UHGV virus genome: UHGV-1419674
Length of the DNA stretch: 24,307 bases
From: a virus
Strand: one strand, 5' to 3'
This document shows positions 19,514-23,729 of this stretch, piece by piece. Position 1 is the stretch's first letter. Each line of letters starts with the position of its first letter. The position numbers and the translations under genes are program-made. The notes beneath the pieces were generated by a model. That model saw nothing but the letters and a program-made list of their open reading frames with translations. It made no database searches and was not told the origin of the DNA.

Positions 19514-21435
19514 TATTCCTCTCCAGATAATGCCCGCGCGTAATCCGCCAGGGTCTTGTTATTGTTACGGCTGCCTTCTTCCTCCAGCAGGCTGGCCAGA
19601 AGTGAATCAAGATTTAGCTGCCAGCGGGATATGCTGATACGAAGCGCCGCCAGTGCATAAACAAAGCAATCGAGCGCCTCATTTCGTCGTTTTTTGCTGT
19701 CCCAGACGATCTTTTTCTTTCCGTCTACCCATTTTTCCACCTGCTCTTCAGCAGTTAGTTGTTGGGCCTCGGTTAGATCGTAGATTTCTGGGTTATTCGG
19801 GAAATGAACCGCTCCCGCCAGCGGCTCGTCTCTTTGCGCCACCAGCGTGAAACGGTTATAAATCTGCTCTTTTGCGGTGTCTGTTCCTACCTCAGTGAGG
19901 TAAACGCCACTCTTGTTACGCTTGCGTGGCATGTTCGCCACCGGCTTTCCATAAACCGACGCACCCTTTATAGGGATCACACGAAACAGACCATGTTTTT
20001 TTGAGCGGTTGTAGACGATGGTGGGATCAATGCCGCCAATATCCCAGCAAGTGCGGGATATAACCATTTCGAGACCGTTCTGGCGCTTATATGTCCTGTT
20101 GATCGCCTCATCCACTCGAGCGAGAGTCGACTCATCATCATGACGACCCATAACGATGATTTTGTCGATAAGCCAGCTTTCCTCTCCCGGTCCCCATCCC
20201 CATACACGCATTTCGTAACGGTCAAGCTGGGAGTCAATACCCGCTGTTAGATATGCCACTCGCTCCGGCACAGACGCTTCAAAGTGCTCTTTGCGCTCCG
20301 CTAAAACTTCAGCATCGGGTCGTTCGCCTATTTTCGGTTCCCACGTTTCGCCCAAGGTCGTGTTAACGAAGGTTTTGCGCTTACCCGTATCACCTTTTGT
20401 TTTTATCCAGTCCTTGACGATCTGCACCCAAGTTGTGAACGGGCTGTAAGCGGTCCAGATGTGGAATGTAACGCTGTCAGGAGGTTCAATTTCAGTACCG
20501 GATGAAGCAAACCAGTGAAGGCCGTCTCGCGTCCAGATACCTGTTTCATCACAAATATACCTGGCCTCAAGGAAATCCAGCTCTTGTTGTTTAATCACAC
20601 AGGCATTGTGTTCACAGAGGTAGTAAACGCTGGAAGGTTCTCCCGGAGACCATTTAAAGCCAAATGGTGTCTCTTCATCGCCAAATTTCAGATACTGCTC
20701 TTCCCCGCAGTGTGGGCATGGAACATGGAACCGAAGAAAATGTTCTGACTCCTTAGCAGCCCTTTCTATCTGGCACGTACCTTTGACTTTCGGTGTAGAG
20801 CCGCGAATGGATTTTGGCCATACAGAACCCTCAATACGCTTATCTCCCAGAAAGGTGGGAGAACCTTCTTTCTCGATGTCATCATCGAAAGCGGCAAGCT
20901 CGTCGTAGCCAGCCACATCAACGGATTTTTCACGGTAGTTTTTTGCAGCCTTACCGCCCAGGCACCAGAAACCACGACCATTTGAGAAACGCTTCATGCT
21001 AAGCGTATTGTCCCGGTGTTTTTTGCCGTACCAAGGAGCAAGCGCCAACAGCGTCGGAATATCACGAATGGTCGGTTCGACATGAGACTTCATGAAGTTT
21101 TCAGCGTCACCGTCGGTTGGCAACCATATTAGGGAGTTACGCTGTTTATGCTGGATGAAATATGCGTAAACGCCGAGCAACATTTTTGAGTAGCCGACAC
21201 GAGCAGATTTAACGACATTCACTTCGCGGATATAGTCATTGCCCATCGCATTCATAATTGCACGCTGAAAGGGCAGTGTTTCCCAGCGCCCTTCCTGGTA
21301 GGCAGACTCTTTCGGGAGATAGTAATTCTCATCTGCCCATTCAACCGCTGTTTGCGGTTCTGGCCGGTAAAGCGAACGTAGCCCCGCCCGCGCAGAGTGC
21401 TGCAGCCCCTTAACCTGACTGTTCGATATATTCAC
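19513..21435 (-). CDS. A: Terminase large subunit A (640 aa)
   Basis: Size (lambda gpA 641 aa), position after nu1 with 26-bp overlap. Confidence 0.96.
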
Positions 21436-21955
21436 TCAGCAACCCCGGTATCATTTCATCCAGCGCAGCTGCTTTGTTCATGGCCTTAATGATGTCCTTC
21501 TTGAGGAAATCAATATGTCGGTTCTCCAGCTCCGGGAAGCGCCGCTGAACCGACAGAGGTATTCCATCGAGAATACTGGCAATTTCTCCGGCTACCCGCG
21601 ACAGCACGAACGTGCAGAATGCGGTCTCCACCACTTCAGCGGACTCTTTTGCATTTTTTAATTCCTGAGCGTCAGCCTGAGCTCGCGTAAGTCGGTGTCG
21701 CTCATATTCAATAGTGCCAGGTTGAAGATCGGACTCAGAAGCAATGCGGAGATCTTCAACTTCCTTCCGCAACTTTTCATTTTCTATGGCTGCATCGCGC
21801 GCACTGTACCATTCGATTGCGGCAGCAGATTCAAAGAGAACCTCATTACCCTTGCCACCACCGCGGGCAACCGGCATACCTTGTTCCTGCCAGTTCTGAA
21901 TCGTTCGGACGCTCACCCCGAAAATTTCGGATAAGCGTTTTTTGTTAACCTCCAT
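21410..21955 (-). CDS. nu1: Terminase small subunit Nu1 (181 aa)
   Basis: Near-identical to lambda Nu1 along its length ([157 protein letters not shown]); AGGAG RBS. Confidence 0.96.
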   Translation of the reverse strand: MEVNKKRLSEIFGVSVRTIQNWQEQGMPVARGGGKGNEVLFESAAAIEWYSARDAAIENEKLRKEVEDLRIASESDLQPGTIEYERHRLTRAQADAQELKNAKESAEVVETAFCTFVLSRVAGEIASILDGIPLSVQRRFPELENRHIDFLKKDIIKAMNKAAALDEMIPGLLSEYIEQSG

Positions 21956-22243: not shown

Positions 22244-22711
22244 TCATCGCAACAGCGCTGACCATATCGTGCCACCTGGCCGAAGACTCTTCTTCAGTTC
22301 CTCGGACACAACATCTGAGATCGCTTTTACCATTTCAGGGGATAGCTTCACGCCGGTCTTAATTTCGGGACAGATGCCAACATTGATGGCATAGCCTTTT
22401 CGTGGGTCGTTCTCTATCCGGCCAAACTGAATATTTACAGAGCCACCAATATAACCACCAGCAGGAACACCAAAGCGCGTATTCACCAGGTGCTTAATGG
22501 CGAACTCCTGCCCTTCAGCGGTCAGGAAGGTGTAATAATTTTCCTTTTGATACTCCGTCGCGGTATGGCGTGTTTCAGCGAATCCCAGCTCTAGAAGCTC
22601 AGCAGCACCAGATTTGGCTGGCAGATCACCAGACTGAAGCGCGCCACGGAAAAACAGCGCATACAGAACATCCGTCGCCGCGCCGGACAACGTGATAATT
22701 TTATGACCCAT
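22244..22711 (-). CDS. Hypothetical protein (155 aa) immediately upstream of cos; possibly DUF1398/YbcV-like by position only
   Basis: Good RBS (AAGGAA, 7-nt spacing); no TM segment or signal peptide; sits where lambdoid phages carry small accessory genes between the lysis cassette and cos. Family assignment not verified. Confidence 0.55.
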   Translation of the reverse strand: MGHKIITLSGAATDVLYALFFRGALQSGDLPAKSGAAELLELGFAETRHTATEYQKENYYTFLTAEGQEFAIKHLVNTRFGVPAGGYIGGSVNIQFGRIENDPRKGYAINVGICPEIKTGVKLSPEMVKAISDVVSEELKKSLRPGGTIWSALLR

Positions 22712-22824
22712 GATTTATTTCCTTTTAGGCGTGAGCCTGTCGCACGGCAAAGCCGCCGAAAGTTAACGGTTTGCCCAGGCTCACAGCTGAAAGACTTTCT
22801 ACGATGTGCGCGTGCGATGCGCAT

Positions 22825-22847
22825 AAAAAAGCCGCGTGATGGCGGCT
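22825..22847 (-). terminator. Terminator-like hairpin (RNA: AGCCGC-CAUCAC-GCGGCU followed by U5-6) between the small-ORF island and the 155-aa gene
   Basis: Stem 22830-22835 and 22842-22847 with an A6 run at 22825-22830 on the plus strand. Confidence 0.45.
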
Positions 22848-22976
22848 ACTGTTTGAATATCAGGGTGTTGTTTCGTCTTAACCCTGGTTAATGTAGGCAT
22901 TCAGCCCGTCGGTGGTGGGACACTGGCGCACTTAATAAAGAGTAATGGCTGATTACCTCAGAATAAGGAATCAAAA

Positions 22977-23237
22977 ATGTCAGAAGGTTTTGGTTTAAAA
23001 GAAAAGGTTGAGCAGTTAGAAAAAGAATTAGCCGTACAAAAAATAGCAAATCAGCTTGCTTTTGGAGCACTAATTAAAGCAGTTAATGAGCTGTACCCGA
23101 ACAAAGATTTATATGATGGGTTGACAAAATTTGTCCAGGAAAAACTTGATCCTGAACGTGTTAAAAACATCCCTAATCTTCACGAGGCCTTTCTAGAAGC
23201 TGCGAAAATACTGAGGACTGACGCATCTCCTGAATAA
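22977..23237 (+). CDS. Hypothetical small acidic protein (86 aa) in an AT-rich island, opposite strand to the late genes
   Basis: AAGGAA RBS 7 nt upstream of the ATG; long ORF in AT-rich DNA where stop codons are frequent; no signal peptide or TM segment. Confidence 0.5.
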   Translation: MSEGFGLKEKVEQLEKELAVQKIANQLAFGALIKAVNELYPNKDLYDGLTKFVQEKLDPERVKNIPNLHEAFLEAAKILRTDASPE

Positions 23238-23331
23238 TTTTATCAACAAAGGCAGTTGTGTCCTCTTGCTTTTCATTCACAATGCATGTGACTGCCTTTT
23301 CTAAAGCTGTAATTCGTTCTTCAAGTGTCAT
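23173..23331 (-). CDS. Hypothetical small acidic coiled-coil protein (52 aa from the ATG at 23331)
   Basis: AGGAG RBS 7 nt upstream of the ATG at 23331 (the ORF-track start at 23355 is a TTG); 3' end overlaps the convergent 86-aa ORF by 65 bp. Confidence 0.4.
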   Translation of the reverse strand: MTLEERITALEKAVTCIVNEKQEDTTAFVDKIIQEMRQSSVFSQLLERPRED

Positions 23332-23364
23332 ACCCACTCCTGTCATTGGCTTCAAAATGATAAA

Positions 23365-23429
23365 CCCCGCATTTGCAAGTCCTATTTATACCCCGCAGGG
23401 GATAAAAACCATATTATCCGCTTGCGGGG
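23365..23429. promoter_or_regulatory. Cluster of CCCCGCA motifs including the imperfect inverted repeat CCCCGCAGGGGATAA-N8-TTATCCGCTTGCGGGG; candidate operator or structured element upstream of the 52-aa ORF
   Basis: Motif copies at 23365-23371 and 23391-23397 (plus) and 23423-23429 (complement); inverted-repeat half-sites at 23391-23405 and 23414-23429. Confidence 0.3.
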
Positions 23430-23471
23430 ATAACCATTATCAAGCCCACCAGTAGATGGGCTTTGTAATGG

Positions 23472-23729
23472 CTACTTCGCTTTTGCTTCCGCTCGCTTAC
23501 GCCGGCGCTCTTCTTTCCTCTCGGCTTTTGCCATGTCCATGAATGCCTGCATGATCGAGTTCCGCATCATGTAGCTAACAAAGTGATGATTGACACAGCC
23601 GTTGAGGCGCAGCTGCTCGCCAAACTCATCCACCGAGGCCAATGCTTCCATCATGCCCTTCTCGCCTTTCATGAACTCTGAGAAGTCGCGCCCCGCTCTG
23701 GAGGCGCATTCTATTATTCGGGTGCTCAT
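23472..23729 (-). CDS. Hypothetical protein (85 aa) with a highly basic C-terminal tail, translationally coupled to the upstream KilA-N gene
   Basis: ATG at 23729 lies 2 nt after the KilA-N gene stop (TGATCATG); C-terminus KAERKEERRRKRAEAKAK; followed 8 nt after its stop by a 7-bp stem-loop (23442-23463). Confidence 0.55.
   Translation of the reverse strand: MSTRIIECASRAGRDFSEFMKGEKGMMEALASVDEFGEQLRLNGCVNHHFVSYMMRNSIMQAFMDMAKAERKEERRRKRAEAKAK

Follow-up and report, generated by a model that had tools for sequence, protein, structure and literature searches.

The 24,307-nt virus genome UHGV-1419674, analysed here at its full length and referred to as the window, contains between positions 22712 and 23471 a visibly AT-rich segment in which two small genes converge: ORF A (22977-23237, (+) strand, 86 aa) and ORF B (23173-23331, (−) strand, 52 aa). 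The question raised by this locus is what such a pair is, and what it might do where it lies. The window corresponds to late DNA of a lambdoid prophage, with Nu1 (21410-21955), terminase A and the genes for portal, head and tail all encoded on the (−) strand and cos at approximately 22130. Over this stretch it is identical to prophages in E. coli O68:H12 97.3 and MB06022. Because the lysis genes of these prophages lie further upstream on the same strand, late transcription is expected to cross the flagged interval from right to left. ORF B, which is co-oriented with the late operon, is the 'forward' partner of the pair, and ORF A, which is antisense to that operon, is the 'reverse' cargo.

A preliminary description of this DNA had treated the whole interval as an accessory island near cos, and its basic observations were confirmed. 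The G+C content is 0.372 over the gene pair (22977-23331) and 0.428 over 22712-23471, against 0.527 for the window, and the composition of the pair thus differs from that of the surrounding genes. The two frames overlap by 65 bp, each is preceded by a good Shine-Dalgarno (SD) site (AAGGA at 22965-22969 for ORF A; AGGAG at 23341-23337 for ORF B), and the repeat CCCCGCA is indeed clustered nearby (copies at 23365, 23391 and 23424). Both proteins had been called acidic, which holds in so far as their pI values are below neutral, but at 5.2 (ORF A) and 4.7 (ORF B) they are only mildly so.

Comparison with other phages and prophages indicates that the island is not a one-off but a member of a widespread, barely annotated class of cassettes with a structured leader RNA as its most conserved component; in the island, too, it is the noncoding leader upstream of ORF A, and not the proteins, that is best conserved. 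The functional reading that we favour, without quite giving it even chances, is that the cassette combines an effector expressed in the lysogen (ORF A) with a neutraliser expressed late (ORF B), by the mechanism set out below.

A mobile cassette with conserved ends and a variable centre

Phages mEp213 and mEp043 carry the full island at 99.5% identity. Among 5426 complete E. coli genomes only 4 contain it, against 446 with the flanking leader of the neighbouring 155-aa gene. Prophages with the same holin, lysozyme and two small-protein accessions are without the island, as is phage mEp237, and in these relatives the holin, lysozyme and small genes run straight into the leader of the 155-aa gene. 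The comparison of related prophages that the preliminary description had recommended therefore agrees with its proposal of accessory cargo in a variable slot, the island being absent from near-isogenic relatives. In this sense the island is 'extra DNA', which, together with a deviating composition and the possession of its own promoter and terminator, is a mark of the moron. The moron concept reportedly goes back to Juhala and colleagues in 2000, and Cumby and colleagues (2012) are also named in connection with it.

The surroundings of the island vary. In mEp213 it abuts Rz, in the window it follows a KilA-N gene and an 85-aa gene, and in Enterobacter prophages copies that are 83-84% identical lie upstream of three different packaging modules (Terminase_4/TerL, Nu1/GpA and DUF1441/GpA). 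A further copy, 73% identical, separates tail genes L and M. The proximity to cos, which the preliminary description had pointed out, is coincidental, since the cassette is also found at this tail-gene site. The part common to all copies extends from approximately 22825 to 23335, and the comparison of insertion sites shows this core to be a mobile cassette of two genes that has entered a lambdoid prophage within its late operon. The interval originally flagged was too wide on its left side, where 125 nt (22712-22836) form a separately conserved leader of the 155-aa gene. The hairpins that were said to insulate the island are both real, but they differ in kind: the left one (22825-22847) is an integral and conserved terminator of the cassette, whereas the right one (23442-23463) is confined to close relatives.

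More distant copies separate what is fixed from what varies. Between subfamilies whose proteins are 36% identical, the ~130 nt upstream of ORF A and the terminator remain ~85% identical. Using a sensitive DNA search, the 132-nt upstream element was found in 27 phage records and 211 E. coli genomes, and a pattern scan of viral contigs identified at least 120 loci with the element, which is represented there by 73 distinct sequences. The element is single-copy in the window, and its exact matches among species-representative genomes fall exclusively within the Enterobacteriaceae. Behind it lie at least 54 distinct cargo proteins of 65-154 aa; the partners of 54 cargos are convergent and overlapping in 46 cases and within 40 nt in the other eight. 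The partners, which reach 111-132 aa in other cassettes, are conserved at their 5' ends both in nucleotides (GCCGAAAGGC-GGGAGA-N-ATGACTTTAGAACAACG) and in protein sequence (N-terminus MTLEQRVEALE). Across these loci, the alignments show that both cassette ends are conserved although the central proteins are unrelated or barely related. They also show the order of the class, which as read on the late (−) strand comprises the conserved SD and N-terminus of the forward gene, a variable centre in which the 3' ends overlap, the leader of ~130 nt and the terminator.

On the same comparative evidence, the island is shown to be one member of the class annotated in HK97 as 'moron / reverse moron' (gp22/gp23). 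In kind it is a known arrangement, a moron or antisense gene nested in a phage operon; as far as we found, the literature holds no prior description of the cassette frame, the leader or the protein families.

Three further observations concern the contents of the class. Some prophages carry two leaders, and hence two cassettes: L096 and L101 are located on one IMG/VR contig, and in Enterobacter bugandensis two leader copies (L151 and L154) lie 2 kb apart. One cargo type, of 142-154 aa (L034, L048, L051 and L130, all viral contigs), contains a D-T-G-A motif as in retropepsin-like aspartic proteases and is quite unlike the small helical cargos. Cassettes of the HK633 type often adjoin a glycosyltransferase-like gene (L016, 3559-5016 (−); L024, 1054-1869 (−); L014, 667-1233 (−)). 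One such neighbour encodes a protein of 485 aa in which a DDGS motif is present, and in CharmingMan and HK633 the neighbours are annotated as glycosyl- or glucosyltransferases; cassette and neighbour may together form a linked lysogenic-conversion module.

Two converging genes and their products

ORF A is clearly coding and under purifying selection, as judged from five copies that have diverged from one another (the window, a copy located between tail genes, and three lineages from Enterobacter or metagenomes). The pooled ratio of nonsynonymous to synonymous polymorphism (pN/pS) is 0.22 in the reading frame of ORF A and 0.97 and 3.29 in the other two. The protein is predicted to be all-helical, the AlphaFold2 (AF2) model consisting of a long N-terminal helix and three short helices with a predicted local distance difference test (pLDDT) score of 73.6. 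ORF A matches phrog_21164, to which no function is assigned, and its close homologues form 8 clusters among 5.8 billion proteins. A full hidden Markov model scan followed by a profile search extended the family to 67 clusters of 75-86 aa, all from Enterobacteriaceae prophages and including HK633 gp65. The HK633-type members, which are 36% identical to ORF A, also face a convergent overlapping partner, in this case of 111 aa, and the C-termini of the two partners are alike (...SSELFSQLS in the HK633-type partner and ...SSVFSQL in ORF B). Since the HK633-type overlap has the same phase, the convergent arrangement of ORF A and its partner appears to be ancient.

ORF B is probably a real but fast-evolving gene. 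Its frame is open in all five lineages even though the protein diverges by up to ~40%, the AGGAG and ATG are kept, and a 15-nt deletion in one lineage (L007) is in frame. An alternative TTG start at 23355 would give a protein of 60 aa; the conserved start is the ATG with AGGAG. Outside the overlap pN/pS is 0.66, against 0.96 and 1.65 off frame, and within the overlap it is 1.00, with substitutions there following the frame of ORF A. The N-terminus is coiled-coil-like (MTLEERITALEKAV), and the N-terminal sequence MTLEERITALEKA fits the motif M-T-L-x-x-R-V-x-x-L-E, which is common to the partners of many other cassettes and whose copies differ at many synonymous codons. ORF B matches phrog_28630 (function unassigned) and has close homologues in 5 clusters among the same 5.8 billion proteins.

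Hairpins on both strands indicate where the two transcripts would end. The cassette core is delimited on its left by the hairpin at 22825-22847, an intrinsic (−)-strand terminator that would end late-direction transcripts. It was identified in a terminator scan as AGCCGC-CATCAC-GCGGCT followed by TTTTTT (−10.3 kcal/mol plus U6), its arms covary between loci (GCCGC/GCGGC versus GCCAC/GTGGC), and a 'terminator' is annotated at the equivalent position in HK97, ES18 and HK639. It is degenerate in some cassettes (the L011, L016 and SP016 types) that retain the rest of the element. In the opposite direction, a terminator-like hairpin on the (+) strand (23248-23302) lies within the coding region of ORF B. 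Here, AAAGGCAGU (23248-23256) pairs with ACUGCCUUU (23291-23299) and is followed by UCU, with a folding energy of −13.3 kcal/mol. The arms are invariant in the five lineages, synonymous sites of ORF B included, the loop is 15 nt shorter in L007, and HK97 and ES18 have a terminator annotated at the equivalent place. This hairpin looks like the terminator of ORF A. The cassette has, as a moron does, termination signals of its own: the terminator with covarying arms on the (−) strand (22847-22825) and this terminator-like hairpin with invariant arms on the (+) strand. Because the former lies beyond the start of ORF A and the latter inside ORF B, fully overlapping convergent transcripts are predicted.

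The position of the second hairpin raises the possibility that only ORF A is functional, and that the frame of ORF B persists as the DNA of the ORF A terminator and as an antisense template, with no functional protein. The low synonymous rate in ORF B is in part due to this invariant hairpin inside the coding region. The pN/pS of 0.66 outside the overlap and 1.00 within it, the tracking of the ORF A frame by the substitutions in the overlap, and the annotation of ORF A alone by PGAP all fit such a reading. It does not sit easily, however, with a frame that is open in five lineages at up to ~40% divergence, with a deletion of exactly 15 nt in frame, or with the retention of AGGAG-ATG. Moreover, MTLEQRVxxLE recurs in the partners of many unrelated cassettes, encoded with different Leu, Arg and Thr codons, and the partners elsewhere reach the lengths given above. 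Given the shared N-terminal motif, ORF B as a nonfunctional frame is the less likely case, and we regard a cassette with ORF A as its only working gene as improbable.

The layout also recalls toxin-antitoxin (TA) modules. The type I systems txpA/RatA and bsrG/SR4 of Bacillus prophages consist of 3'-overlapping convergent RNAs, one for a hydrophobic membrane toxin and the other a noncoding antitoxin. As in these systems, the units found here are small, convergent and 3'-overlapping and lie in a prophage; the terminator positions imply long complementary transcripts, and the pair moves as a unit, as an addiction or abortive-infection module run by such RNAs might do. In contrast to type I systems, both strands here have conserved coding frames and encode hydrophilic helical proteins, and neither specifies a noncoding antitoxin. 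The grand average of hydropathicity (GRAVY) is −0.41 for one protein and −0.50 for the other, both are without a membrane or other hydrophobic segment, and matches to TA or defence models were zero. A TA-like module is thus an unlikely description of the pair.

Neither protein was recognisable to the preliminary description, and the profile and structure searches that it had advised left both as orphans, with no known family for either and no specific fold for ORF A. Pfam, NCBIfam and PADLOC hold no informative family for ORF A or ORF B, and the PHROGs matches are to orphan groups only. A search of PADLOC-DB 2.0 at E ≤ 0.1 gave zero matches for ORF A, ORF B, the HK633-type cargo and its 111-aa partner. 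Fold searches with the AF2 model of ORF A returned nothing specific, and a sequence search of the PDB returned a marginal match to lambda cI and generic coiled coils, and nothing else.

Two weak resemblances could be taken to mean that ORF A is a lysogenic-conversion regulator of the host, for example an IraP-like anti-adaptor that stabilises RpoS or a decoy of a cI-type repressor, and not an effector aimed at phages. The first is a UniRef label, 'Anti-adapter protein IraP', carried by a 36%-identical relative (P0043 / ECL_01684 group), and ORF A does share with IraP its length of 86 aa and its helical character. However, an IraP match in Pfam is absent for ORF A and for nine members of its family, and hhalign of the ORF A family against a provisional E. 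coli IraP sequence gave a probability of 0.1%. An identity of ORF A with IraP was rejected, and the UniRef name is probably an annotation error that could propagate. The second is the marginal profile match between ORF A residues 28-78 and helices 3-5 of the lambda cI N-terminal domain (cI residues 47-98; GALFNGINAL versus GALINAINAL). This match has E = 0.0096 over the whole sequence but 0.4 for the best single domain, it leaves out helix 2 and the turn of the helix-turn-helix (HTH) motif, and Pfam gives no HTH match, so that the similarity is probably due to chance. In addition, the diversity of cargo behind one leader suits an arms race better than a conserved host target, and a role of ORF A as host regulator is doubtful in our view.

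The structured leader and a possible switch

The conserved element upstream of ORF A consists of a putative promoter region (22848-22899, (+) strand), which is ~85% identical across cassettes with unrelated cargo, and a structured 5' leader (22900-22976, (+) strand). The best conserved sigma70-like site in the upstream region combines a −35-like TTGTTT (22868-22873) and a −10-like TAATGT (22889-22894) with a spacer of 15 bp. As a candidate for the own promoter of a moron, this site (22868-22894) is conserved but weak, and a standard scan does not call it. An inverted repeat, CAGGGT (22861-22866) and ACCCTG (22881-22886), straddles the −35 and the spacer. The repeat was considered as an RNA helix and rejected, several lineages having a mismatch at the fifth pair with no compensation. 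Because it accumulates mismatches and not compensatory changes, the repeat more likely acts at the DNA level.

The structure of the leader was evaluated on an alignment of 62 sequences. The model comprises a helix P2 (22907-22914 with 22921-22928), a helix P3 (within 22939-22961, just 5' of the AAGGA SD) with the invariant loop GAUGGCUGAUUA, and a possible pseudoknot in which CAGCC (22902-22906) would pair with GGCUG (22947-22951) of the P3 loop. Overall, 95.1% of cells are paired. In P3, three pairs have changed on both sides, in 21 cells, a result reached by 0 of 500 shuffles, and variation in P2 is confined to U-G, U-A and C-G. The two pseudoknot segments never vary and so give no covariation signal either way. 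Together, the compensatory and G-U pairs support a plus-strand RNA structure in the leader. On the (−) strand ~84 G-U cells would turn into mismatches (A-C or C-A), which identifies the plus strand, and with it the 5' untranslated region of the reverse gene, as the structured RNA. A transcription start near 22900 would put the first leader helix at the 5' end of the mRNA, and 5'-terminal helices are known to stabilise mRNAs in E. coli. No Rfam family matches the leader, apart from an isrK alignment at chance level. A short leader peptide starting at ATGGCTGAT was also considered and rejected, its frame and stop not being conserved.

The isrK alignment bears on the possibility that the element acts mainly on the (−) strand, as an Hfq-type small RNA that ends at the 22825-22847 terminator and is comparable to IsrK. 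On this strand a stem-loop, a stretch rich in A/U and a strong U6 terminator do close the region, and the Rfam alignment covers 22825-22905 (−). The match to the IsrK small RNA (RF01394) was nevertheless rejected: it scores 17.6 bits against a gathering score of 50 (E = 0.88) and rests mostly on the terminator, which is itself degenerate in the three cassette types, named above, that retain the rest of the element. The G-U cells that turn into mismatches on this strand are a further difficulty. A conserved (−)-strand promoter was looked for in the element and none was found, the best site (TTAACC-18-CACCCT) being without the key −10 bases. A small RNA on this strand is accordingly given little credence here.

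A different view of the conserved ends is that they have no regulatory role, and are recombination linkers at mosaic lambdoid boundaries, kept similar by frequent exchange. Conservation falls sharply at the start codon of ORF A and at the partner N-terminus, as it does at mosaic joints, and the same ends flank many different centres. The variation within the leader is not neutral, however, but structured, being compensatory and wobble-preserving in P2 and P3 and absent from the loop and pseudoknot segments, and the terminator arms co-vary. Linkers with no regulatory role therefore seem quite unlikely; the linker reading is compatible with such a role, and may be part of the truth.

The reading preferred here, of a lysogen-expressed effector and a late-expressed neutraliser, would work as follows. 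In the lysogen, ORF A would be transcribed from its own weak promoter (−10 at approximately 22889-22894), giving an mRNA that begins with the 5'-terminal structured leader and stops at the hairpin inside ORF B; expressed in this way from the prophage, ORF A would be the effector. After induction, Q-modified late transcription would read through the cassette on the (−) strand, and ORF B would be translated. The late read-through RNA would be antisense to all of ORF A and its promoter, and would lower ORF A expression by collision or by formation of duplex RNA. Residual ORF A protein would be neutralised by ORF B, possibly via the N-terminal heptad helices of both proteins, and the heptad-like character of these N-termini suggests direct binding. 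Thanks to the conserved ends, the central pair would also be exchangeable by homologous recombination, from phage to phage and from site to site.

The mechanism is inferred from two precedents, phi80 TaiEcA/AtiEcA (PMC11364771) and 80alpha Tha/Ith (PMC11087260). With these, and with terminator positions that predict that each transcript covers the other gene, the antisense-coupled expression raised in the preliminary description can be rated plausible. The most likely role of the effector would be exclusion of, or defence against, other phages, with ORF B shielding the phage's own lytic cycle, and an arms-race function is in keeping with how extremely cargo and partner vary behind a single frame. 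The evidence of this analysis does not separate anti-defence, exclusion and lysogenic conversion.

Several points weigh against this reading. The candidate promoter, with its 15-bp spacer, has a mean score of only ~4 bits and escapes a standard scan. ORF B is weakly constrained (pN/pS 0.66), and the embedded terminator of ORF A could explain part of its conservation. The conserved ends could reflect recent recombination instead of function. Neither ORF A nor ORF B matches a PADLOC model, and a literature search found no transcription or phenotype data for the cassette or for members of its class. Homology to the phi80 proteins was considered and rejected: hhalign gave a probability of 0.6% when the ORF A family was compared with phi80 gp52 (204 aa), presumed to be TaiEcA/orf63, and of 0.1% when the ORF B family was compared with gp51, presumed to be AtiEcA/orf64. 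Finally, the phi80 pair is divergent, with overlapping 5' ends, whereas the pair in the window is convergent, with the forward gene first and the 3' ends overlapping.

A broader proposal is more doubtful still, although possible. This is that the class constitutes an undescribed Enterobacteriaceae-wide cassette system, in which a fixed frame (terminator, new RNA leader and partner N-terminal coil) surrounds a hypervariable effector/neutraliser centre, the ends would serve as recombination handles, and the leader would represent a new class of cis-regulatory RNA that couples the effector to the lysogeny-lysis switch. If the inferred logic is true, one leader of ~130 nt would flag small prophage proteins of at least 54 kinds, every one of them paired with a cognate partner. 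It would provide a sequence-searchable catalogue of candidate exclusion or defence and self-immunity pairs in the prophages of E. coli, Salmonella, Enterobacter and Citrobacter, and would extend, with a compact and dissectable example, the idea that prophages avoid autoimmunity via an antisense gene nested in an operon. The leader is a candidate new RNA element, outside Rfam and with covariation support. Should the proteins be unimportant, the cassette would still document conserved ends that move accessory genes between unrelated phage sites.

Flanking leaders and comparison with known systems

Both flanks of the cassette contain structured sequence. The region upstream of ORF B (23332-23471, (−) strand) includes its SD, two CCCCGC palindromes and a long hairpin. 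The CCCCGCA copies form two 20-nt palindromes (23386-23405 and 23414-23433) and a 24-nt long-range inverted repeat, and the long hairpin (23431-23474) directly follows the stop codon of the 85-aa gene. The hairpin at 23442-23463 is more stable on the (−) strand (−15.1 kcal/mol) and has no U tract. The (−)-strand RNA of 23320-23472 folds at −56.9 kcal/mol (z = −3.7 versus shuffles) into two long hairpins of unusual stability, likewise with no U tract; the structure may serve in RNA processing or stability, or as an operator for a protein. Conservation of 23332-23471 is limited to the close relatives L001-L010, and the region is absent from L007, L011 and L013. Close relatives keep ATCCC...GGGAT stems in 23320-23472, and the loops vary.

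On the left, the structured leader of the 155-aa gene (22712-22836, or 22712-22824 up to the cassette terminator; (−) strand) is a separate unit outside the cassette. Independently of the island, its 125 nt are conserved at 93-98% in the 446 E. coli genomes mentioned above (out of 5426) and in numerous lambdoid phages; among the latter is phi80, where the equivalent sequence lies upstream of gp49. A long hairpin, GUGAGCCUG...CAGGCUCAC, ends just before the SD (z = −2.15), and a search of Rfam gave no match for this leader. The 155-aa protein itself (22244-22711, (−) strand) looks like a modular protein with a conserved N-domain, encoded next to cos. Its N-terminal ~80 aa alone are common to several PHROGs with differing C-termini, and longer versions exist in phi80 (gp49, 242 aa, whose N-terminal part it resembles) and as a 'Fur-regulated protein' of 242 aa annotated by PGAP.

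The closest known counterparts of the cassette are the gene pairs 22/23 of HK97, gp22/gp23 (srb) of HK022 and 24/25 of ES18. The reverse genes are labelled 'reverse moron product' (HK97 gp23), 'srb' (HK022 gp23) and gp25 (ES18) in GenBank, and each converges on a forward 'moron' gene. As in the window, the two small genes overlap or abut at their 3' ends, the late terminator lies beyond the reverse gene, and the reverse-direction terminator lies inside or beside the forward gene. Upstream of their reverse genes these cassettes have a homologous element, which is 74-88% identical to window positions 22845-22976. The proteins are not correspondingly similar: HK97 and HK022 gp23 have no detectable similarity to ORF A, and ES18 gp25 is marginal (pairwise E = 0.006). 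The location also differs, since these cassettes lie between tail genes (I/J or M/L) and that of the window lies between the lysis genes and cos. A function for the 'reverse moron', HK022 srb or HK97 gp22/gp23 did not emerge from a literature search.

In the noncontiguous operon of phi80, TaiEcA and AtiEcA form a defence by tail-assembly inhibition and its counter-defence (He et al. 2024, PMC11364771). The lysogen produces TaiEcA, expression of Q lowers the amount of this protein, and AtiEcA protects the phage from self-inhibition (PMC11364771). The slot is that of the window, with the lysis region on one side, the conserved leader of the gp49-like gene on the other and the packaging genes downstream, and a reverse gene is again nested in a Q-dependent late operon beside a small forward late gene. 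The strand arrangement of such an operon was found here as well, with ORF A and its putative promoter on the (+) strand and the terminase, head, tail and lysis genes and ORF B on the (−) strand. Unlike the cassette, phi80 is without the conserved leader element of ORF A, and its gp52 is a protein of 204 aa with an Rx4H-like motif, whereas ORF A is a helical protein of 86 aa. As a separate observation, gp52 (L026, 1866-2480 (−)) contains the sequence R-N-D-L-A-H and has weak matches to CARF_HEPN models in PADLOC (E = 0.004), a hint that this protein, described as an inhibitor of tail assembly, has a HEPN-like domain.

The Tha/Ith system of the Staphylococcus aureus phage 80alpha provides the second precedent: its antisense layout is needed if immunity and autoimmunity are to be balanced (Rostol et al. 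2024, PMC11087260). The details differ. Roles and module are the other way round, the antisense gene being the inhibitor and lying in the lysogeny operon; the proteins are unrelated, and the host is a Gram-positive bacterium. The principle is shared, in that an antisense gene with its own promoter is nested in an operon and the two expression states are mutually exclusive across the lysogeny-lysis switch, and in that a small protein inhibits the effector, much as is proposed here for ORF B.

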